From a virus (Duplodnaviria > Heunggongvirae > Uroviricota > Caudoviricetes), in the IMG/VR virus record IMGVR_UViG_3300025838_000019, positions 38,640 to 102,639 of that record: 64,000 nt of DNA. One strand, written 5' to 3'. Each line of letters begins with the position of its first letter. The stretch's first letter is position 1. Below, piece after piece: positions 37,884 through 64,000 of this stretch. The position numbers and the translations under genes are program-made. The notes beneath the pieces are model-generated. The model saw only the letters and a program-made list of their open reading frames with translations. It was not told the DNA's origin and did no database searches.

Positions 37884-39539
37884 ATGGCATCACAATTTAA
37901 TAAATTTTCTTTGTTTGGTTTTACAATCTCTCGTGAGAAAAACGAGGGTGATGGTAAAATAGAACAATCTTTTAGCCCACCGTCTAATGATGACGGTGCG
38001 CTTACCATTACGTCTGCCGCTTATTATGGTACCTATGTTGACTTAGACGGTACAGCTAAAAACGAAGTCGAGTTGATTTCTCGATACCGTGAAATGGCAA
38101 TGCAGCCAGAAATCGAATCTGCAATCGATGATATTATCAACGAAGCAATCTGCCATGACGATGACGGTAAATCAATTCAAATTGTTCTGGATGATCTAAA
38201 CGTTCCAGACAAAATTAAGAAGGCTATCAAAGGCGAGTTTCAAACAATTTTGAAATTGCTGAACTACGGTAATATGGCACAAGATGTTTTCCGTAGATTC
38301 TACGTTGACGGAAGACTTTACTACCACATCATCATTAACCGTGATGACCCAACACAAGGTATTAGAGAGTTACGTTATATTGATCCACGCAAACTACGTA
38401 AAGTACGTGAAGTTAAAAAGAAAAAAGACGAACGTACCGGCGTAGATATCATGAATGTTATCAATGAATACTACATTTTCAATGACAAGGTTACTACTGG
38501 TTCTTCTAGTAGTTTTGGTCCTGTTGGGGTCCGTATTACGACTGATTCTATTATTTCTGTCGTTAGTGGTCTTATGGATTCTCGTAGAGCTGTGGTTCTA
38601 TCATATCTGCATAAAGCTATTAAACCGTTAAACCAGTTGCGTATGATTGAAGATGCGACAGTTATCTATCGTATCTCTCGTGCGCCAGAACGCCGTATTT
38701 TCTACATTGACGTTGGTAACTTACCAAAATTAAAAGCAGAACAATACCTACGTGACATTATGGTTAAGTACAAGAACAAACTTGTATATGATGCTAACAC
38801 AGGTGAAGTACGTGATGACCGTAAATTCATGTCCATGATGGAAGACTTCTGGTTGCCACGTAGAGAAGGCGGTAAAGGTACAGAAATTACCACACTACCT
38901 GGAGGACAGAACCTGGGTGAGCTGGAAGACGTTAAGTACTTTGAGAAGAAACTGTATAAAGCATTAAACGTTCCTGTCTCCAGATTGAATCCTGAGAACT
39001 CTGGTTTCTCTATGGGTCGTGTATCAGAAATTACTCGTGACGAATTGAAGTTCACTAAGTTTGTGGACCGTCTACGTACTAAGTTCTCTGACTTGTTTGA
39101 TAGAGCTCTAAAGACACAATGTGTGTTGAAAGGCATCTGTACAGCAGAAGAATGGGATGAGTTCAAAGAACACATTCACTACGACTTTATTAAAGACAAC
39201 AATTTTGCAGAATTAAAAGATGCAGAATTAATGAAAGAACGTTTGTCTTTGTTGGGTGCGGTTGACCCTTATGTTGGTCGTTATTACTCACAAGCTTGGA
39301 TTCAACGTCATGTTCTACGTATGAACGATGATGACATTTCAGCAATGACTTCTGAAATGGAAGAAGAAAAAGCTTTGGGTATTGGTTTGCCAGTTGGTGT
39401 TTCCAATGCGGCAATGCAACAACAAATGGTTGGCGATATTCAAACACAACAACAAATGCAACAAAATCAAGCCGATGATGATGAACAAGTGAAAGAGTCG
39501 TCACCAGGTATCATAAGTAGAATCAGACAGGTTCTATAA
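37884..39539 (+). CDS. gp20: Portal protein gp20
   Basis: LSYLHKAIKPLNQLRMIEDATVIYRISRAPERRIFYIDVGNLPK; EDFWLPRREGGKGTEITTLPGG. Confidence 0.98.
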   Translation: MASQFNKFSLFGFTISREKNEGDGKIEQSFSPPSNDDGALTITSAAYYGTYVDLDGTAKNEVELISRYREMAMQPEIESAIDDIINEAICHDDDGKSIQIVLDDLNVPDKIKKAIKGEFQTILKLLNYGNMAQDVFRRFYVDGRLYYHIIINRDDPTQGIRELRYIDPRKLRKVREVKKKKDERTGVDIMNVINEYYIFNDKVTTGSSSSFGPVGVRITTDSIISVVSGLMDSRRAVVLSYLHKAIKPLNQLRMIEDATVIYRISRAPERRIFYIDVGNLPKLKAEQYLRDIMVKYKNKLVYDANTGEVRDDRKFMSMMEDFWLPRREGGKGTEITTLPGGQNLGELEDVKYFEKKLYKALNVPVSRLNPENSGFSMGRVSEITRDELKFTKFVDRLRTKFSDLFDRALKTQCVLKGICTAEEWDEFKEHIHYDFIKDNNFAELKDAELMKERLSLLGAVDPYVGRYYSQAWIQRHVLRMNDDDISAMTSEMEEEKALGIGLPVGVSNAAMQQQMVGDIQTQQQMQQNQADDDEQVKESSPGIISRIRQVL

Positions 39540-51407: not shown

Positions 51408-52061
51408 ATGGTTGAAAAAGTAAATTTGGAGTTGAAGGATGTGTTGCGTGATGATGATACCATTATTATCGACACGGAAAAACAATCACAACTGGTACAA
51501 CACCACATCGAGACATTCGATTTGGTTTCAGAAGATGATCCTATCTTGCGAGAAGTATTGCCTGAATTTGATTTTGATAATGCAACAATCAATCCAGCCG
51601 ACTTTGCATCGTCAATGGTAGAAACCTGTATCAAAAATCGTGGTTACGGCTTGTCTGCAAATCAATGTGGATTCCGTCATCGCATGTTTGTAATGGGTGC
51701 TGGTACAGAATATGTGGCATTTTATAATCCTAAGGTTGTTAAAACTGAAGGTGAAACTCACATGGGTGAAGCATGTCTATCATTCCCGATGATGGAACTC
51801 AAGGTGACTCGTCCTAAAGAGATTTGGGTTGAATACCAAGACTTCAACGGTAACAAAAAAGAGGCACACTATGTTGGCTTAAGTGCAAGATGTTTCTTGC
51901 ATGAGCTTGACCACATGGACGGAATCGTGTATACTTCACGTGCGAAACCACTTGCATTGCAAATGGCTTTGAAAAAACGTAACAAGATTAAAACACTGAT
52001 TAAACGTGCTGAGAAAGCCGCAGAAAAAATTACAAAAGCCCATGGCAAAAAACATTCCTGA
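51408..52061 (+). CDS. def: Peptide deformylase
   Basis: All three PDF motifs present: GYGLSANQCG, EACLSF, HELDHMDG. Confidence 0.95.
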   Translation: MVEKVNLELKDVLRDDDTIIIDTEKQSQLVQHHIETFDLVSEDDPILREVLPEFDFDNATINPADFASSMVETCIKNRGYGLSANQCGFRHRMFVMGAGTEYVAFYNPKVVKTEGETHMGEACLSFPMMELKVTRPKEIWVEYQDFNGNKKEAHYVGLSARCFLHELDHMDGIVYTSRAKPLALQMALKKRNKIKTLIKRAEKAAEKITKAHGKKHS

Positions 52062-53310
52062 TATTGAAGAACAGTGGAGTAACTGGAAGGATCAAAACGA
52101 TCCTTCTAGTTTTACACACATTGATACCGAAAAACTTCGTGAAGATTTGATTGCAGACTTAACAATCAAGTCACAGATGGATGTTCGTGAGTATACCTTG
52201 TACCAGAAATGGTGTGAGGTACACGAAAAGTTTCCTACCAAAGAAGTTTCTGTTTTATTTGGTGATGATGAGTTTCAGCTTATAAATCCAAAACAGAAAA
52301 AAGATATTGAGTCTATCAAATCAAATCTTTGGATGCCAGAAACACCGGATGATTTTGATAAATTAAAACCTAAAATGGTTCTTTCTAATGGTCCGTTGGC
52401 AGACCGTTGGAACACACTACGCACATTCTCGTCTACAATGAAGAATAATTCTAACATTGGACGCAACCTATACTACACCGTGACAGATGAAGTCACAGGT
52501 AAGTATCTTGGTGTCATTTGTATTTCTTCTGACTTCCTAGACTTAACTCCACGTGATAAGTTTATTGGTTGGCCTAAAGAAGTGAAGACACAAGGTAACA
52601 TGATTAATCACACAGCAATCGGTTCTACGATTGTTCCTTTGCAACCACTCGGTTTTAATTATATGGGTGGTAAATTGTTGGCACTTTTGTGTCTATCTGA
52701 CACAGTTCAAGAAGATTGGAAAAGACAATATGGTGACATTCTTGTTGGCGTTACAACTACTTCTCTATATGGCATGGCAAAGTCCGGCGGGTTATCACAG
52801 TATGATGGTCTCGAACATTGGACTAAAATGGGATTCAGTTCGGGCTCAGTCGCTTTTGACCCTAGCCGTAATTTACTCAACACAATATACGATTGGGTAA
52901 AAGAGAATCATACACGCCATTACTTTGAATGGTGGGAAGCCAAGAAACCAAATGGCTTACCATACAAACGTGACCATAAAAATCGTACACTACACTTTGC
53001 ATACAGTAAGTTGAAGATACCAAAAGAATTGGTGAAGTGTGCTCACCAACGTGGCATTTACTTTTCGCCACTATACAATAACACACCCGAATTCCTCCGT
53101 AAAGAAATTACGGAAGAATCACTGGTAAAATCATTTGATACCAGTGTTGAGGCTTTGACAAATATTTGGAAAACCAAATATGCCAAAGGCCGTATTAGGC
53201 AACTTCAAAAGAAAAATAACGTTTCATATGAAACACTTTTCTATGATGACCTAATCTATTTGTCTTGGGAAGAAACCAAGTCAAAGTATTTGCCACAAGT
53301 TGGCAGATAA
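52042..53310 (+). CDS. DUF4338/DruA-like protein
   Basis: LGVICISSDFLDLTPRDKFIGW, IVPLQPLGFNYMGGKLLALL, TTTSLYG...SQY resemble phage DUF4338-type proteins (recognised by eye). Confidence 0.6.
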   Translation: MAKNIPDIEEQWSNWKDQNDPSSFTHIDTEKLREDLIADLTIKSQMDVREYTLYQKWCEVHEKFPTKEVSVLFGDDEFQLINPKQKKDIESIKSNLWMPETPDDFDKLKPKMVLSNGPLADRWNTLRTFSSTMKNNSNIGRNLYYTVTDEVTGKYLGVICISSDFLDLTPRDKFIGWPKEVKTQGNMINHTAIGSTIVPLQPLGFNYMGGKLLALLCLSDTVQEDWKRQYGDILVGVTTTSLYGMAKSGGLSQYDGLEHWTKMGFSSGSVAFDPSRNLLNTIYDWVKENHTRHYFEWWEAKKPNGLPYKRDHKNRTLHFAYSKLKIPKELVKCAHQRGIYFSPLYNNTPEFLRKEITEESLVKSFDTSVEALTNIWKTKYAKGRIRQLQKKNNVSYETLFYDDLIYLSWEETKSKYLPQVGR

Positions 53311-58614: not shown

Positions 58615-59040
58615 ATGAACGACATGTTCAACTTCCATCGCTTCGACCCTTTCACAATCGGTTTCACCGATGTTTTTGAAGAACTTGAAAAGGCTTCAAA
58701 AAAACTACAGAAAGCGGCATTCCCTCCATACAATATCAAACAGTTGTCCGAAAACGAATACGTCATTGAAATGGCTGTTGCTGGTTTTGGTAAACAAGAT
58801 ATTGAAGTTACTCTAGAAGGTAACAAGCTTGTCGTTAAAGGCAACGCTAAAGAGGATGAACCAGATACTTTCATCTACAAAGGAATTGCTAACCGAAACT
58901 TCACACATGAATTCACTATTGCCGATAAGGTAGAAATTGAAAATGCCGAATTGGTAAACGGTATGTTGAAGATAGGTTTGTCTAATATGGTAAAGATGCA
59001 AGACGCCATCAAAAAGATTCCCCTATTCTCTAAAGAGTAA
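58615..59040 (+). CDS. Small heat-shock protein Hsp20 (IbpA-like)
   Basis: FPPYNI, YVIEMAVAGF, YKGIANRNFTHEF, AELVNGMLKI. Confidence 0.95.
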   Translation: MNDMFNFHRFDPFTIGFTDVFEELEKASKKLQKAAFPPYNIKQLSENEYVIEMAVAGFGKQDIEVTLEGNKLVVKGNAKEDEPDTFIYKGIANRNFTHEFTIADKVEIENAELVNGMLKIGLSNMVKMQDAIKKIPLFSKE

Positions 59041-59044
59041 TAAG

Positions 59045-59082
59045 AAAAGGGTCTTGACAGACCCTTTTTTTTCATGTATAAT
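59045..59082 (+). terminator. Intrinsic terminator overlapping a sigma70 promoter
   Basis: AAAAGGGTC-TTGACA-GACCCTTTT plus T run; the loop TTGACA is a -35 box 17 nt upstream of TATAAT (59077-82). Confidence 0.8.
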
Positions 59083-59091
59083 GGTGATATT

Positions 59092-59280
59092 ATGAAAAAA
59101 TTAGACTTTATTAAAATGCGAGTGGTTTCTTCAAGAGAAATTGTGTACACATTCAAACACTGGCCAACCCAAGAAATTGATGGTGTGGAGTTTTTGTCTG
59201 TCTGTAAACGTGAACCTTCACAAGAACTGACACAAGTATCACATTGGATGCGTAAAGATTCTTTGGAAAGAGTGAAATGA
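59092..59280 (+). CDS. Hypothetical protein
   Basis: ATG downstream of the promoter above; overlaps the next gene. Confidence 0.55.
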   Translation: MKKLDFIKMRVVSSREIVYTFKHWPTQEIDGVEFLSVCKREPSQELTQVSHWMRKDSLERVK

Positions 59281-59854
59281 TTCCACGTAAAATTGCAACC
59301 GAAGAAGATGCGAACCGGTTATACGACCATTTTCTAGAAGATATTGTTGGTCATGACCGTTATCTGAGGTTTGGTTATGCTGCATCCGATGCTAATATAA
59401 TTGACTACTTAGATAAGGCCTTTGATGAATTTGGTTTCAAGAACATGTGGTTTATTGTTGAACACGAAAACGCTGGGGTTGTTGGCTCTGTTCATGTTAC
59501 TTTTTATCCACTAAGCAAAGATGGTGATTATTCTGCTGAAATGGGATTCACCGTTTCACCAGAATTTCGTGGCCAAGGTCTAGGCCAAGAGTTATTCATT
59601 CGTGGTGCAACATGGGCAATGTCTAAAGGCGCAAAGACTCTATTCACTCAATGCCTATCAGATAATAAGGTAATGCAACACATCGCCAAGAAAAATGGCA
59701 TGACTGTTGTAACGATTGCACAAGGTGAAAAAGAAGCCACTATTCAGGCAACAAAAGGTAAAATTCAATCCTACTTTGATGATAAGTACTTTGATAATCT
59801 TGCGTTTGTTGATAAGGCGGTATCTTTACAACAACAAATTTTTAAATCATTATT

Positions 59855-59864
<10 letters not shown>
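59277..59864 (+). CDS. GNAT-family acetyltransferase
   Basis: DRYLRFG, AEMGFTVSPEFRGQGLGQEL acetyl-CoA-binding motif A, DNKVMQHIAKKNG. Confidence 0.9.
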
Positions 59865-59931
<67 letters not shown>

Positions 59932-59949
59932 TTTTTGAAGGAGTATATT

Positions 59950-60171
59950 ATGGATATGGATGTAGCAGCAGAAGTGCTTGCAGGTAGTATTTTGACTGGG
60001 TTATCTCTTATTATTTTTGTATCTACTGTTGTAGTAATTAACAACATCATACACCGATACTGGAAGCCAATTCAGATGTTTAAGTTCTTAGAGTACCCAC
60101 CATCGGTACCGGAAGAATCAAAAATTACCCAAAGTAACGACACTATCACCACGATTAAAAATAACAATTAG
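59950..60171 (+). CDS. Small membrane protein
   Basis: aggag SD; hydrophobic segment LAGSILTGLSLIIFVSTVVVI. Confidence 0.6.
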   Translation: MDMDVAAEVLAGSILTGLSLIIFVSTVVVINNIIHRYWKPIQMFKFLEYPPSVPEESKITQSNDTITTIKNNN

Positions 60172-60197
60172 ACTTTTGATGAAAATAGTGATATACT
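60169..60197 (+). promoter_or_regulatory. Sigma70-type promoter
   Basis: TAGACT-17nt-TATACT with extended -10 TG, upstream of rubrerythrin. Confidence 0.6.
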
Positions 60198-60241
60198 ATC
60201 ATAAGTAATTATTTGATTGCTAAACTTTATAAAGGAAAAAT

Positions 60242-60691
60242 ATGTCAGTTACAATGAAAAATCTTGAGAGTGCATTGGCAGGCGAATCAATGGCTCACAT
60301 CAAGTACCGTTATTTTGCTAAGTTGGCTCGTGCAGAAGGCTTTGAAGAAGTTGCAAAACACTTCGAACACACTGCTGACCAAGAAATTCTCCATGCATGG
60401 GGTCATTTAGAGTTACTAATTGGTAAACCAACAACTAAGAAATGCTTAGAACTTGCCATTGAAGGTGAGACACATGAATTCACAACCATGTATCCTGGTT
60501 TTGTTACCGATGCACAACAAGAAGGTCATCGTGCAGTAACAGAATTCCAAGAACAGGTTGACGAGTCTCAACAACATGCGGAACAATTCAAGAAAGTTCT
60601 AGAGATGGCTGAGAAACGTTTTGCTGCATTGGCTAAAGTTGAAAAACGTCATGCAGAAGCATATCAAGTTAAACTAGGAGAAATGAAATGA
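60242..60691 (+). CDS. Rubrerythrin (di-iron four-helix bundle)
   Basis: NLESALAGESMA..KY.YFA, EILHAWGH, AIEGETHE...MYP, ESQQHA. Confidence 0.92.
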   Translation: MSVTMKNLESALAGESMAHIKYRYFAKLARAEGFEEVAKHFEHTADQEILHAWGHLELLIGKPTTKKCLELAIEGETHEFTTMYPGFVTDAQQEGHRAVTEFQEQVDESQQHAEQFKKVLEMAEKRFAALAKVEKRHAEAYQVKLGEMK

Positions 60692-60819
60692 GCGAAAGAA
60701 TTTACGTTTGTGTAGTTTGTGGCCACCAATTGTCTGAAGCAGACTGGTTGAGTCTTCCTGATGAAGTCAACTGTCCAGAATGTGGTGTTTCTAAAAATGA
60801 TTATGTGTTGATGGAATGA
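60688..60819 (+). CDS. Rubredoxin-like protein (43 aa, absent from the ORF track)
   Basis: MSERIYVCVVCGHQLSEADWLSLPDEVNCPECGVSKNDYVLME: CxxCG...CPxCG; ATGA overlaps at both ends. Confidence 0.85.
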   Translation: MSERIYVCVVCGHQLSEADWLSLPDEVNCPECGVSKNDYVLME

Positions 60820-61250
60820 AAGAAAAGTTTCGTAATGCGTATATGAGGGTGGCAGAGACTTTCGCAGGATTGTCTTCTGCCAGACGACTTCATGTTGGTG
60901 CCATTATTGTCAAAGATGACCGTATCATAAGTATTGGTTATAACGGAATGCCATCCGGTTGGAACAATAATTGCGAGTTTGAATTCACTAATGAACAAAC
61001 AAAAATAACAGAACTGGTAACTAAAGCTGAGGTTTTACATGCTGAAACAAATGCGATTGCAAAGTTGGCTAAATCGACCGAATCTGGTGATGGCGCTACT
61101 ATGTTCGTTACCCACGCTCCTTGTTTGGACTGTGCCAAGTTGGTATATCAGAGTGGCATCAGTAACGTGTTCTATCGTGATGCTTACCGGAATGATAGTG
61201 GAATTTTATTCCTTGAAAAAGCCGGAGTTAAGGTAGAGCAGATTCGATAA
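60816..61250 (+). CDS. dCMP deaminase
   Basis: VGAIIV, GYNGMP, HAETNAI, HAPCLDC zinc motifs. Confidence 0.93.
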   Translation: MKEKFRNAYMRVAETFAGLSSARRLHVGAIIVKDDRIISIGYNGMPSGWNNNCEFEFTNEQTKITELVTKAEVLHAETNAIAKLAKSTESGDGATMFVTHAPCLDCAKLVYQSGISNVFYRDAYRNDSGILFLEKAGVKVEQIR

Positions 61251-61281
61251 ATAGGTCGAGGACAACTCCTTGGAGAAACTG

Positions 61282-61818
61282 ATGCAACTAAGTATCATAA
61301 AATGTCCCGATAAAGAAAGATTTCGTCCTTTTGTGAAGCGTGCAACACACTTCTTTGCAGAAGAACTAATGACTAAAAATATGTTGGAAAACATACACTT
61401 AACCATCAAGTTTGATAAATCACTTGAGGTTTGTGGATACGCATCTGTTGAGGAATACACATACTCTGGTAAAGCCAGAGAATTTTTGGTAGAAGTAAAT
61501 CCAAATATCGGTGCAAGAGAAATCTTGGAAACCATTGCACATGAAATGGTGCATGTCAAACAGTATGCTTACAGTGAAACCAACGAACGCCTAACCAGAT
61601 GGAAAGGTGAATATATATCTGATGATGTAGATTACTACAGTCAACCGTGGGAAATTGAAGCTTATGGTATGGCAGTAGGCCTACTTAACAAATTTGTGGT
61701 GAAAGAAAAATTGTGGGAAGTCTTTGAAGGTATTGCCAATCCAGACTCTCCAATTGAAAAGATACCTTTAGGATGGAAACGTTATGCAGAAGATTGTGTT
61801 AGTGACAGGAGGATTTGA
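61282..61818 (+). CDS. Zinc metallopeptidase-like protein (HExxH)
   Basis: LETIAHEMVHVKQY and YYSQPWEIEAY; ggag SD before the ATG at 61282. Confidence 0.75.
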   Translation: MQLSIIKCPDKERFRPFVKRATHFFAEELMTKNMLENIHLTIKFDKSLEVCGYASVEEYTYSGKAREFLVEVNPNIGAREILETIAHEMVHVKQYAYSETNERLTRWKGEYISDDVDYYSQPWEIEAYGMAVGLLNKFVVKEKLWEVFEGIANPDSPIEKIPLGWKRYAEDCVSDRRI

Positions 61819-62545
61819 TCCTCTACATTCAGGTCACATTCAATATTTTAAAGAAGCCGCAAAACTCGGCGACTTATTGATTGTTGGTTTGAATAGTGAT
61901 GCATGGTTAGAACGCAAAAAAGGTCGTGCGTTTATGCCTTTGAATGAACGCAAAACAATCATAGAACACCTTTCAATCCTTGATGCAGTTATCACATATA
62001 ACGATGATGACAATTCAAGCAGAGCTGCAATTTTAAAAGTAAGAGAAATCTGGCCAGATGCAAGAATTATTTTTGCAAACGGTGGTGATAGAACACAATC
62101 AAATATTCCAGAAATGGATGTTGTAGATGACAACCTTGAATTTGTTTTTGGTGTAGGTGGTGAGAATAAGAAAAATTCTTCTTCATGGATTCTAAAAGAA
62201 TGGAAAGCACCAAAGACTGACAGAGCTTGGGGTTACTATCGTGTTCTACATGAAGTACCTGGAATGAAAGTCAAAGAGTTGACTGTAGAACCTGGCAAAT
62301 CTTTGAGTATGCAAAGACATTCACATCGTGCTGAGTATTGGATCGTTAGTGAAGGTTGTTGTGTTGTGAATAGTATGATGAATGGTGGTTATGCATTACC
62401 TCCTCTGTTGTTAAACAAACACGATGAATACAAAGTGCCTGTAGGTTCATGGCACCAACTAACTAATCCATTCGATCATCCTTGCAAGATTGTAGAGATA
62501 CAATATGGTCTTGAATGTGATGAAGAAGATATCGAAAGAAAATAA
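61784..62545 (+). CDS. Cytidylyltransferase-like domain fused to a mannose-6-phosphate-isomerase-type cupin
   Basis: GGFDPLHSGH (HxGH), VGLNSD, ANGGDR; C-terminal RAWGYYRVL...KVKELTVEPGKSLSMQRH.HRAEYWIV. Confidence 0.88.
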   Translation: MQKIVLVTGGFDPLHSGHIQYFKEAAKLGDLLIVGLNSDAWLERKKGRAFMPLNERKTIIEHLSILDAVITYNDDDNSSRAAILKVREIWPDARIIFANGGDRTQSNIPEMDVVDDNLEFVFGVGGENKKNSSSWILKEWKAPKTDRAWGYYRVLHEVPGMKVKELTVEPGKSLSMQRHSHRAEYWIVSEGCCVVNSMMNGGYALPPLLLNKHDEYKVPVGSWHQLTNPFDHPCKIVEIQYGLECDEEDIERK

Positions 62546-62570
62546 TTTAATAAATATACCAAAATAGTTG

Positions 62571-62599
62571 TTGCCAAGGCTCAAAAGTTCCTATATAAT
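62571..62599 (+). promoter_or_regulatory. Sigma70-type promoter driving the tRNA-array leader
   Basis: TTGCCA-17nt-TATAAT; a late-type AATAAATA lies at 62549-56. Confidence 0.8.
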
Positions 62600-62632
62600 A
62601 CAAACATTGAAAAATTTTTAGAAAGAAAATTC

Positions 62633-62758
62633 GTGTCTCTCATATCCCATAAACCCTTTTCGTTGCAACCAGAGTATCGCACAGTTACAAATAATTGTGG
62701 TGATAGCTCATGGGCGATTCAAAAAGGTGGGTTTTGTGTAGAGGGATGGGACGAATAA
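62633..62758 (+). CDS. Putative leader peptide (41 aa, GTG start)
   Basis: MSLISHKPFSLQPEYRTVTNNCGDSSWAIQKGGFCVEGWDE; purine-rich AGAAAGAAAA upstream; embedded in attenuator-like structure. Confidence 0.55.
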   Translation: MSLISHKPFSLQPEYRTVTNNCGDSSWAIQKGGFCVEGWDE

Positions 62759-62785
62759 CAAAGTTCTAAAAAAGATACCAAACGC

Positions 62786-62820
62786 AAAACCCTAGTCAGA
62801 GAAATCTACTAGGGTTTTTT
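62786..62820 (+). terminator. Intrinsic terminator (attenuator 3:4 hairpin)
   Basis: AAAACCCTAGT(62786-96)/ACTAGGGTTTT(62808-18) with inner AGA-GAAA-TCT; T6 run followed by GTTTGTTGTTTT. Confidence 0.85.
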
Positions 62821-62824
62821 GTTT

Positions 62825-62875
62825 GTTGTTTTGAAACAACAAGTGTATTGACAAGAATCTCGGTTCTGATACAAT
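62825..62875 (+). promoter_or_regulatory. tRNA-array promoter with upstream palindrome
   Basis: GTTGT-N6-ACAAC (62825-40), TTGACA (62848-53), 16 nt, TACAAT (62870-75). Confidence 0.75.
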
Positions 62876-62882
62876 ACACACA

Positions 62883-62898
62883 TGTTCTTTAAAAATTT
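62883..62898 (+). promoter_or_regulatory. rrn-type boxA antitermination element
   Basis: TGTTCTTTAAAAATTT; first 12 nt match E. coli rrn boxA TGCTCTTTAACA at 10/12. Confidence 0.65.
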
Positions 62899-62916
62899 GT
62901 AGAGTCAAAAAATTGT

Positions 62917-62992
62917 TCCCTGTTCGCCTAGTGGTCTAAGGCACCGGTCTTTGAAATCGGTATCATTGGTTCGAATCCAATACGGGGTGCCA
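62917..62992 (+). tRNA. tRNA-Gln(UUG)
   Basis: Cloverleaf; anticodon arm CCGGT-CTTTGAA-ATCGG; T loop TTCGAAT; G73-CCA; U1:U72 mismatch. Confidence 0.9.
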
Positions 62993-63067
62993 TATAAAAA
63001 CACATTACTCTGCTGTCTTTTACGGTGGAGAGGATTGTCTATTACGGTCCGTTAGTGTGTTTCTATA
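62993..63067 (+). ncRNA. Structured three-way-junction RNA between two tRNAs
   Basis: Closing stem with 14 of 15 pairs (62993-63007/63053-63067) enclosing two hairpins with near-identical loops. Confidence 0.55.
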
Positions 63068-63068
63068 T

Positions 63069-63160
63069 GGAAGCGTGGTCGAGTCTGGTTTATGGCAGCA
63101 GTCTTGAAAACTGCCGGCTCAGGAATGGGTCCGTGAGTTCGAATCTCACCGCTTCCACCA
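63069..63160 (+). tRNA. tRNA-Ser(UGA)
   Basis: Acceptor GGAAGCG/CGCTTCC, anticodon arm GCAGT-CTTGAAA-ACTGC, long variable arm, encoded CCA. Confidence 0.92.
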
Positions 63161-63166
63161 AACAAC

Positions 63167-63258
63167 GGTGAGTTGGATGAGCGGTTTAAATCGGCAACCT
63201 GCTAAGTTGTTGTGTGTAGAAATATGCACCGTGGGTTCAAATCCCACACTCACCACCA
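63167..63258 (+). tRNA. tRNA-Ser(GCU)
   Basis: Acceptor GGTGAGT/ACTCACC, anticodon arm GCAAC-CTGCTAA-GTTGT, long variable arm, encoded CCA. Confidence 0.92.
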
Positions 63259-63261
63259 AAT

Positions 63262-63353
63262 GCCTCGGTGGCTTGGTAGTCAGAGAGTCCTTATAAGACT
63301 TTTAGCGCCAGATTAGCGTTCTTGAGAAGGTTCGATTCCTTCCCGAGGTACCA
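63262..63353 (+). tRNA. Atypical tRNA with UAU anticodon (nominally Ile)
   Basis: Acceptor GCCTCGG/CCGAGGT, T arm GAAGG-TTCGATT-CCTTC, loop CT-TAT-AA, encoded CCA; shrunken D arm and long variable arm. Confidence 0.75.
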
Positions 63354-63368
63354 AATGAAAGTGAGATT

Positions 63369-63605
63369 ATGTGGAAAGTTTATTTGAGTGATCGTGATTG
63401 TTTTTTCAAAACATTGGATGAAGCAATGAAGTTTGCAACCAATGAAACAAACGAATTTGTAACCATCACCGATGGAACCACGGAAATTGTGGGTAAGTTT
63501 GGTGTTGATGCAGTAGAAAACAAAGTTCTACCGGATGGTGGAACATACGATTGGACTATGAGGCGTGATGAAACACACCGTAGTTCAAGGAAAAAGTTAG
63601 TGTAG
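63369..63605 (+). CDS. Hypothetical protein inside the tRNA array
   Basis: 78-aa ORF with a weak SD (gtgag); stop codon overlaps the first bases of tRNA-Cys. Confidence 0.55.
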   Translation: MWKVYLSDRDCFFKTLDEAMKFATNETNEFVTITDGTTEIVGKFGVDAVENKVLPDGGTYDWTMRRDETHRSSRKKLV

Positions 63606-63677
63606 GCATGACCCGAATGGCTAGGGACTGGATTGCAAACTCAGTATATGCAGGTTCGACTCCTGTTGCCTACTCCA
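63602..63677 (+). tRNA. tRNA-Cys(GCA)
   Basis: Acceptor GTAGGCA/TGCCTAC, loop TT-GCA-AA, U73 discriminator (Cys identity element), encoded CCA; imperfect anticodon stem. Confidence 0.88.
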
Positions 63678-63678
63678 A

Positions 63679-63729
63679 GTTGTAAAAAAACAACAAGACG
63701 GTTGACAAACTATCTGGTTGTGATACAAT
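63679..63729 (+). promoter_or_regulatory. tRNA-array promoter P1 with upstream palindrome
   Basis: GTTGT-N6-ACAAC (63679-94), TTGACA (63702-07), 16 nt, TACAAT (63724-29). Confidence 0.75.
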
Positions 63730-63766
63730 ACATTCATGTTTTGAGAAATCGAAACAAAAAACAGAT

Positions 63767-63817
63767 GTTGTAATCATACAACAACTGGTTGCCAAGTAAG
63801 TGATGTTCTGATACAAT
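63767..63817 (+). promoter_or_regulatory. tRNA-array promoter P2 with upstream palindrome
   Basis: GTTGT-N6-ACAAC (63767-82), TTGCCA (63789-94), 17 nt, TACAAT (63812-17). Confidence 0.75.
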
Positions 63818-63824
63818 ACTTACT

Positions 63825-63840
63825 TGTTCTTTAAAAATTT
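63825..63840 (+). promoter_or_regulatory. rrn-type boxA antitermination element (second copy)
   Basis: TGTTCTTTAAAAATTT, part of a 27-nt exact repeat of 62883-62909. Confidence 0.65.
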
Positions 63841-63852
63841 GTAGAGTCAAAT

Positions 63853-63927
63853 GCACGATTCGTCTATCGGTTAGGACGCTGCCCTTTCAAGGCGGAAAGA
63901 CGAGTTCGATTCTCGTATCGTGTACCA
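63853..63927 (+). tRNA. tRNA-Glu(UUC)
   Basis: Acceptor GCACGAT/ATCGTGT, anticodon arm CTGCC-CTTTCAA-GGCGG, encoded CCA. Confidence 0.92.
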
Positions 63928-64000
63928 TACTAAAACACATTGGGTTACCAACTCCAGTAGGTGACTGGCAGAGAATTTCAGCAGCCGTGCTGACTCTGGC

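Follow-up and report, generated by a model that had tools for sequence, protein, structure and literature searches.

A host-type rrn boxA and a predicted leader–trailer helix frame the tRNA array of a T4-like phage, suggesting use of host ribosomal RNA machinery

Here we describe a repeated 27-nucleotide (nt) element at the head of a phage transfer RNA (tRNA) array, in which a boxA of the type found in ribosomal RNA (rrn) operons is joined to one strand of a predicted long-range RNA helix. The element lies near the end of the stretch of DNA that we analysed (64,000 nt, hereafter the window), which corresponds to positions 38640–102639 of the IMG/VR virus record IMGVR_UViG_3300025838_000019 (166,639 bp, 98% complete, 38.5% G+C). 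The phage, an uncultured one from freshwater, is T4-like, encoding a gp45 clamp and a gp44 clamp loader, and its closest cultured relatives are Pelagibacter myophages, at 53–57% amino-acid identity in the one protein compared. When run on the whole genome, ARAGORN placed 27 tRNA genes in an array at genome positions 101556–108965, so that most of the array lies past the end of the window. Phage tRNA arrays are common, and to our knowledge it has hardly been asked how kilobases of their untranslated RNA escape Rho and gain defined ends.

Two units of the array open within the window, both on the + strand. The cargo of unit 1 (62917–63677; ARAGORN, Rfam and the list of open reading frames, ORFs) comprises tRNA-Gln (from 62917), two tRNA-Ser genes, tRNA-Ile(UAU), a 78-codon ORF and tRNA-Cys, while that of unit 2 (63853–64000 within the window) begins with tRNA-Glu at 63853 and continues outside it, as seen with ARAGORN on the whole genome. 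The main block closes with tRNA-Thr(UGU) at genome 106767–106840. The cargo as a whole is mostly untranslated, consisting of tRNA genes and a few small ORFs; no convincing intrinsic terminator was found on the + strand inside the array, and an Rfam scan of 59000–64000 returned tRNAs only.

Three promoters on the + strand precede these units, each with a stem-loop directly before it. Unit 1 is headed by a stem-loop at 62823–62842 (7 bp, 6-nt loop, −6.6 kcal/mol) and promoter 1 at 62848–62875 (TTGACA, 16-nt spacer, extended −10 box TGaTACAAT; 11/12 consensus positions plus the TG). Unit 2 has two such pairs on the same strand, namely a stem-loop at 63679–63694 (GTTGT, 6-nt loop, ACAAC, from reading the sequence and comparing the cassettes) with promoter 2 at 63702–63729 (TTGACA, 16-nt spacer, TGaTACAAT), and a third stem-loop at 63767–63782 with promoter 3 at 63789–63817 (TTGCCA, 17-nt spacer, TGaTACAAT). 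Between the two pairs, again on the + strand, stands a boxB-like hairpin at 63737–63756, with 8 bp (one G.U), a GAAA tetraloop and a predicted energy of −7.1 kcal/mol (z = −4.3). A stem-loop directly before a strong sigma-70-type promoter is the layout of the promoter-early stem-loop (PeSL) cassettes of T4-type phages (Arbiol et al., 2010, PMC2839356), which the cassettes here resemble. The same layout (GTTGY, short loop, ACAAC, then −35) recurs at four protein-coding early genes elsewhere in the genome, all without boxA. PeSL cassettes therefore account for the array promoters and their duplication, but not for boxA or the helix, which are found at the tRNA array only. The GTTGT-N6-ACAAC palindromes were considered as an array-specific operator and rejected, being generic to the early promoters of this phage. 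A preliminary description of this DNA had likened the tandem promoters to rrn P1 and P2, and that likeness fell away for the same reason: the cassette is a generic early-promoter one, and two promoters before tRNA-Glu occur only in the window and in one relative (L008), other relatives having a single promoter there. The tandem layout arises because a cassette has been inserted between hairpin and boxA, an insertion common only to the window and L008. Upstream of the array lies a further promoter (62571–62599; TTGCCA, 17-nt spacer, TATAAT), followed by a GTG-started frame of about 44 codons in which most amino acids are represented, and a strong intrinsic terminator at about 62787–62820 directly precedes promoter 1; read-through past this terminator would carry boxA copy 1 as well.

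The 27-mer itself follows promoters 1 and 3 in two exact copies, both on the + strand (62883–62909 and 63825–63851). The preliminary description had reported each copy 7 nt past a TACAAT and just before the first tRNA of a unit, and we confirmed this: the distance to the tRNA is 7 nt for tRNA-Gln and 1 nt for tRNA-Glu, and none of 100 shuffles gave a match. The first 13 nt (62883–62895 and 63825–63837, + strand) occur at these two sites only in the 166.6-kb genome, even with one mismatch allowed, and both copies fit the published boxA consensus GYTCTTTAANA (PMC5725501) without mismatch. This is a better yardstick than the match of 10/12 positions to Escherichia coli boxA given earlier, although that count was correct. 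Of the 27-mer, boxA takes up about the first 13 nt and no more, and the remainder is better described as the 5′ strand of a predicted leader–trailer helix whose partner lies 4.4–5.3 kb downstream (see below). Both boxA copies are on the tRNA sense strand, downstream of extended −10 promoters scoring 10–11 of 12, and RNAs begun at promoter 1 or promoter 2 contain copy 2 in their interior as well. Among the 29 strong sigma-70-type promoters of the phage only two have boxA behind them, and both head the tRNA array. Folded by itself, the leader RNA around boxA is unstructured (−1.4 kcal/mol, z = 0.6). From spacing alone, the host sigma-70 polymerase is predicted to start at about 62882, 1–2 nt before boxA, and at about 63824.

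The element has a precise bacterial counterpart. The first 22 nt of the 27-mer were used to scan 185,579 prokaryotic species, each represented by one genome. Only four genomes gave exact matches, at five loci in total; they belong to Curvibacter, Leptothrix, Caldimonas and an uncultured betaproteobacterium, and all are Burkholderiales. In all five the site lies in the 16S–23S spacer, after tRNA-Ile, tRNA-Ala and a hairpin and about 200 nt before 23S, and the identity between the phage element and this spacer boxA region extends over 22–24 nt. Each of these rrn operons holds exactly two boxA-like cores (GYTCTTTRA), one in the 16S leader, where it also follows a hairpin, and one in the spacer, and other Burkholderiales have close variants of the spacer element. 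Comparison with the rrn boxA of candidate hosts, which the preliminary description had proposed, has thus given a host clue. The host link rests on the identity of the phage boxA with the exact spacer boxA of four Burkholderiales genomes and may be treated as a lead; the match, to spacers of the Comamonadaceae and Sphaerotilaceae type, points to a freshwater Burkholderiales host. A pattern search of 401 Burkholderiales genomes added spacer variants and no finer host assignment, with matches in 9 genomes only, mostly since draft genomes came without assembled rrn operons.

The preliminary description had also proposed a scan of related phage arrays, and here the element proved to be positionally conserved at array heads while its flanks have diverged. 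An IMG/VR scan with the exact 22-mer returned 27 loci, a set selected on the motif itself, and in all of them the element follows a sigma-70-type promoter and stands 3–12 nt before tRNA-Gln, Ser or Glu. Promoter spacers and flanks differ among these loci, and the arrays have one orientation relative to the leaders. For a sample independent of the motif, loci were fetched by a 19-nt piece of tRNA-Glu and contexts were defined by synteny (tRNA-Cys, a gap of 60–500 nt, tRNA-Glu). The boxA core lies 24–30 nt before tRNA-Glu in 14 of the 22 unique contexts so defined and is invariant across the 14, and the 3′ extension differs by lineage. A GNRA hairpin (GAAA or GCAA) abuts boxA in relatives, 1–4 nt before it, in 17 of 64 unique contexts and with at least six different covarying stems, which bears out the earlier comparison of the GAAA hairpin in the window with boxB. 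The putative boxB thus stands ahead of boxA, as it does in rrn operons; in the window, an inserted promoter cassette separates the two and has left the hairpin 68 nt upstream of boxA copy 2. Gammaproteobacterial-type variants of boxA (C at position 3, or AACAA) stand before the tRNAs of four lineages fetched by tRNA-Glu (L071, L134, L146 and, in its second leader, L113), and these variants suggest that each lineage may carry the boxA flavour of its own host. Other searches reached less far: megablast of the region against cultured phages gave nothing but tRNA-Ser similarity in Xanthomonas phages, and distant blastn with promoter, boxA and tRNA-Glu gave tRNA-Glu matches only, without the leader. 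Distant relatives found via the neighbouring cytidylyltransferase–cupin gene (52–68% identity) have no adjacent tRNAs and no sense-strand boxA, and serve as a negative control only.

The second part of the 27-mer is matched at the other end of the array. Its nt 9–26 (62891–62908 in copy 1, overlapping the A-run of boxA, and 63833–63850 in copy 2, both on the + strand) have a perfect 18-nt complement in a trailer at genome 106868–106885 (L188:5869–5886), which lies 28 nt past tRNA-Thr(UGU), 4,229 nt beyond the end of the window, 4.4 kb from copy 2 and 5.3 kb from copy 1, one trailer serving both leader copies. Shuffled leaders were used as the control, an antisense-strand control being confounded by the second leader copy; none of 500 reached a pairing of 18 nt, and the duplex is predicted at −26.9 kcal/mol. 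The bacterial bases that follow boxA find their complement in the 23S–5S spacer about 3.2 kb downstream, and in genomes with CA in place of TG in the spacer (two positions) the trailer compensates. It is because of this complementarity and compensating change that we regard the extension of the 27-mer as the 5′ strand of a leader–trailer helix of the pre-23S type. Perfect complements of 15–18 nt were found in eight phage loci, and 500 shuffled leaders never reach them. There are at least eight distinct helix sequences, each with its own trailer (G000, L011, L013, G407, L084, L141, L112 and L071), that of L112 having 19 bp including one G.U, and in five more relatives, three of them complete genomes, the leader copies are followed by a single trailer 3–5 kb further along that strand. 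When metagenomes were scanned with the L141 variant of the helix, two phage arrays and no rrn operon came back, which does not show own-host mimicry for each lineage; since this variant matched phage contigs only, the helix strand can drift from any host sequence. The trailer in the present phage also supplies the −35 box and spacer for a promoter outside the window (TTGACT, 17-nt spacer, TGaTACAAT; L188:5869–5897, G000:C1:106868–106896) that drives the genes past the array. The same overlap is seen in relatives L018, L020 and L023, and in L023 an altered leader pairs by U.G wobble, so that the −35 box stays intact.

We propose, with a probability of roughly 70%, that the 27-mer is an RNA signal in two parts, either copied from the pre-23S region of the host or converged on it, in which boxA and the leader–trailer helix would put host machinery to use on the phage array. 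After initiation by the host sigma-70 polymerase, boxA at or near the 5′ end of the RNA would most likely bind host NusB–S10, and this binding would nucleate the rRNA antitermination complex (with NusA, NusG, SuhB and S4), the GNRA hairpin after promoter 2 being in the position of rrn boxB. The polymerase could then cross the mostly untranslated 4–5 kb of the array fast and without Rho-dependent termination. Once transcribed, the trailer would pair with the leader, as happens around pre-23S rRNA, and host RNase III would probably cut the helix, thereby freeing the array from downstream mRNA. That host rRNA antitermination is co-opted for the tRNA array had been put forward in the preliminary description and is supported by the rrn identity and the positional conservation; binding of Nus factors, resistance to Rho, faster elongation and cleavage by RNase III are what we infer from them and from the helix. 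In rrn operons, boxA is reported to be necessary and sufficient for formation of the rRNA antitermination complex (rrnTAC), and a second boxB–boxA set lies upstream of 23S (PMC10250234). We found no genes for NusB or RNase III in the phage genome, and a screen of that genome for a small arginine-rich protein like lambda N turned up spurious ORFs only, in agreement with the earlier remark that an N-like protein is lacking. A phage without its own NusB and RNase III would depend on those of its host, and this supports the proposal.

Known systems show how far the likeness goes. With the rrn operons of Burkholderiales (Curvibacter, Leptothrix and Caldimonas; L030–L034, L170–L172), the phage array shares the 22–24 identical nt that span boxA and the first bases of the 5′ helix strand. 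The core of the helix also agrees in the trailer, a hairpin likewise lies upstream, and the elements come in one order, namely hairpin, boxA, helix strand, cargo and complementary strand. The phage array differs from these operons in that its cargo is tRNA genes and a few small ORFs rather than 23S rRNA, in that the element stands directly after a promoter (1–2 nt or about 25 nt from the predicted start), in its 18-bp helix as opposed to the extended, interrupted bacterial one, and in having two leader copies for one trailer. Compared with the boxB–boxA–boxC of E. coli rrn and its rrnTAC (NusA, NusB, NusE, NusG, SuhB, S4), the order of hairpin, boxA and leader–trailer helix strand is alike, the consensus GYTCTTTAANA is matched and the transcript is untranslated, but the phage boxA differs at 2/12 positions and its binding of the factors is a prediction. 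Moreover, boxC of Enterobacteriaceae comes 18–19 nt after boxA, whereas the phage helix strand overlaps the 3′ A-run of boxA. Lambda nut sites acting with N likewise use a host-type boxA and a GNRA-type hairpin on phage transcripts to modify host RNA polymerase, as we suppose for the present phage. However, lambda has boxA before boxB and needs N. The present phage follows the rrn order instead, its genome yielded no N-like arginine-rich protein, and its boxA precedes a non-coding cargo and is joined to a predicted long-range helix.

Several points weigh against our proposal. The 11-nt consensus alone is insignificant in the window, with 2 occurrences seen against 0.63 expected and two or more in 12 of 100 shuffles; what makes boxA significant is its position and orientation, the exact repetition of all 27 nt and the fact that other genomes conserve it. 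In rrn operons boxA lies tens of nt downstream of the transcription start. The 7-nt gap from the −10 box would put the phage boxA at the extreme 5′ end of the RNA, and the start site of promoter 3 could fall inside boxA. In other contexts, for example suhB, boxA can promote Rho termination. Eight of the 22 Cys–Glu contexts are without boxA; one lineage (L115) has kept the hairpin and lost boxA, and in another (L027) the copy has decayed, so that the element is not indispensable for every unit. Cultured Vibrio phage KVP40, which is similar in having a large tRNA array in a T4-like genome and a related tRNA-Glu, has no sense-strand boxA in its 22-kb tRNA region. An A/U-rich helix of 18 bp is short for RNase III. 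Finally, because the trailer overlaps a promoter, with TTGACT as its −35 box, part of its conservation may be at the DNA level.

It may also be that the signal serves RNA folding and processing only, tethering the ends of the array and chaperoning its processing as has been proposed for rrnTAC, with protection from Rho not the selected function. Deletion of boxA in E. coli lowers 30S activity about 3-fold and is not lethal, the leader–trailer helix matters more than boxA, and rrnTAC has been proposed to keep the leader close to the exit channel for as long as the trailer has yet to appear (PMC10250234). The translated ORFs and highly structured tRNAs of the array may, besides, already resist Rho. 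Such a role is nonetheless compatible with antitermination, as one complex does both, and some relatives have boxA with no trailer detected in the available sequence, these loci often being truncated. We consider it unlikely that folding and processing are the whole of the function.

A different question is whether the complementarity acts in RNA at all, as covariation alone cannot tell an RNA helix from a DNA inverted repeat. The two arms might belong to a mobile tRNA cassette, as its terminal inverted repeats or as sites at which it recombines or inverts, or might have arisen as by-products of the promoter cassettes: a segment of 4–5 kb is indeed flanked by inverted repeats, the trailer overlaps the −35 box in several lineages, and both leader copies sit in repeated promoter cassettes, of the kind that recombine in T4-type phages. 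Yet the bacterial pairing frames 23S rRNA, is by its position an RNA processing stem and has covariation of its own. In the phage, the leader arm is within the transcript and overlaps boxA, two leader copies face one trailer, gene order is collinear with all arrays found in a single orientation relative to their leaders, and trailers without any promoter exist (L004, L011 and L013). Furthermore, of the four imperfect helix positions three are sense-strand U.G or G.U pairs and A.C does not occur, which favours an RNA helix over a DNA inverted repeat. A purely DNA-level origin of the pairing therefore seems very unlikely to us.

The identity of 22–24 nt with the Burkholderiales spacer and the identical trailer core would also fit direct capture of host rrn DNA (the 16S–23S and 23S–5S spacers), surviving beside the tRNA genes as a relic with no role in transcription or processing, and phage tRNA regions are prone to recombination, as their PeSL cassettes attest. 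Against such a relic, the arms are held 3–8 kb apart in many diverged phages by compensating changes, a covariation that suggests purifying selection; the boxA core is invariant while its neighbours drift; and pairing is kept in lineages whose extension matches no spacer that we found. The phage order also differs from that of the host, with boxA before the tRNAs and directly after promoters, so the element is not a co-captured block of tRNA and spacer, and we regard a functionless relic as highly improbable. Scarcely credible is a negative boxA, in which Nus binding at the 5′ end represses expression of the array or attenuates it in the manner of suhB. Repression that depends on boxA, with stronger Rho termination, has been documented for suhB and hisG, but the suhB effect acts by blocking translation of the adjacent coding sequence, whereas here a tRNA lies 1–7 nt away without a ribosome-binding site. 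What the element matches is the spacer boxA of rrn operons together with its helix rather than the leader of an mRNA.

If the two-part signal does act as we propose, one could imagine, as a quite unlikely extension, that pseudo-pre-23S RNA, made in abundance by strong promoters on replicating phage DNA, competes through its boxA and helix with host rrn for NusB–S10, SuhB, S4 and RNase III, and so helps to shut off host ribosome synthesis. Pairing of the trailer might in addition strip Nus factors, because the helix overlaps the 3′ end of boxA, and so stop antitermination exactly where the array finishes and transcription passes to a new promoter.

Other features of the array and genome deserve mention. 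The tRNA-Ile with anticodon UAU (63262–63353) is unusually long, at 92 nt, and its Rfam tRNA score is low, at 31 bits barely over the threshold. Spacers between tRNAs at 62993–63068, at 63928–64000 and beyond (G000:C1:102567–102900, 103530–103630 and 105168–105260) share one long closing stem, approximately AAACAYATT ... AATGTGTTT and then CTATAT, which encloses variable structured inserts of 50–300 nt. As a family, these non-tRNA RNA cassettes recur within the array, and Rfam is blank for them. The spacers of a second family, outside the window (G000:C1:103233–103302, 103869–103944 and 104980–105090), begin with TTTAGGAT, include CAGCAA and end with ATCCTGTTG, and one member has a tRNA-like T arm and anticodon loop. 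Elsewhere in the genome, ARAGORN detected a permuted gene resembling transfer-messenger RNA (tmRNA) at G000:C1:18629–19002, outside the window, with the tag peptide VNDSKFALAA. In the replication-gene region of the window, 52006–53310 encodes a 434-amino-acid protein with a domain like Druantia DruA (PF14236, E = 2e-22), homologues of which are found in Pelagibacter and Synechococcus myophages.

A search of the full-text literature found papers on rrn and lambda boxA, and none on boxA or a leader–trailer helix at phage tRNA arrays; the components are known, and the framing of a phage tRNA array by boxA and helix is new. Our results offer a concrete answer to how such an array may escape Rho and gain its ends, namely that it would be dressed as pre-23S rRNA, with a boxA and a processing stem of host type. 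If this is correct, a protein-free route of rrn type would be added to the classical lambda N paradigm of phage antitermination, and the targets of the Nus complex would extend to phage non-coding operons. It would also point to a compact cassette with which bacteria could be made to express long arrays of non-coding RNA. Finally, boxA together with its helix strand could serve as a short, host-specific barcode for assigning uncultured phages, one that here would lead to freshwater Burkholderiales and not to the SAR11 hosts of the nearest cultured relatives.

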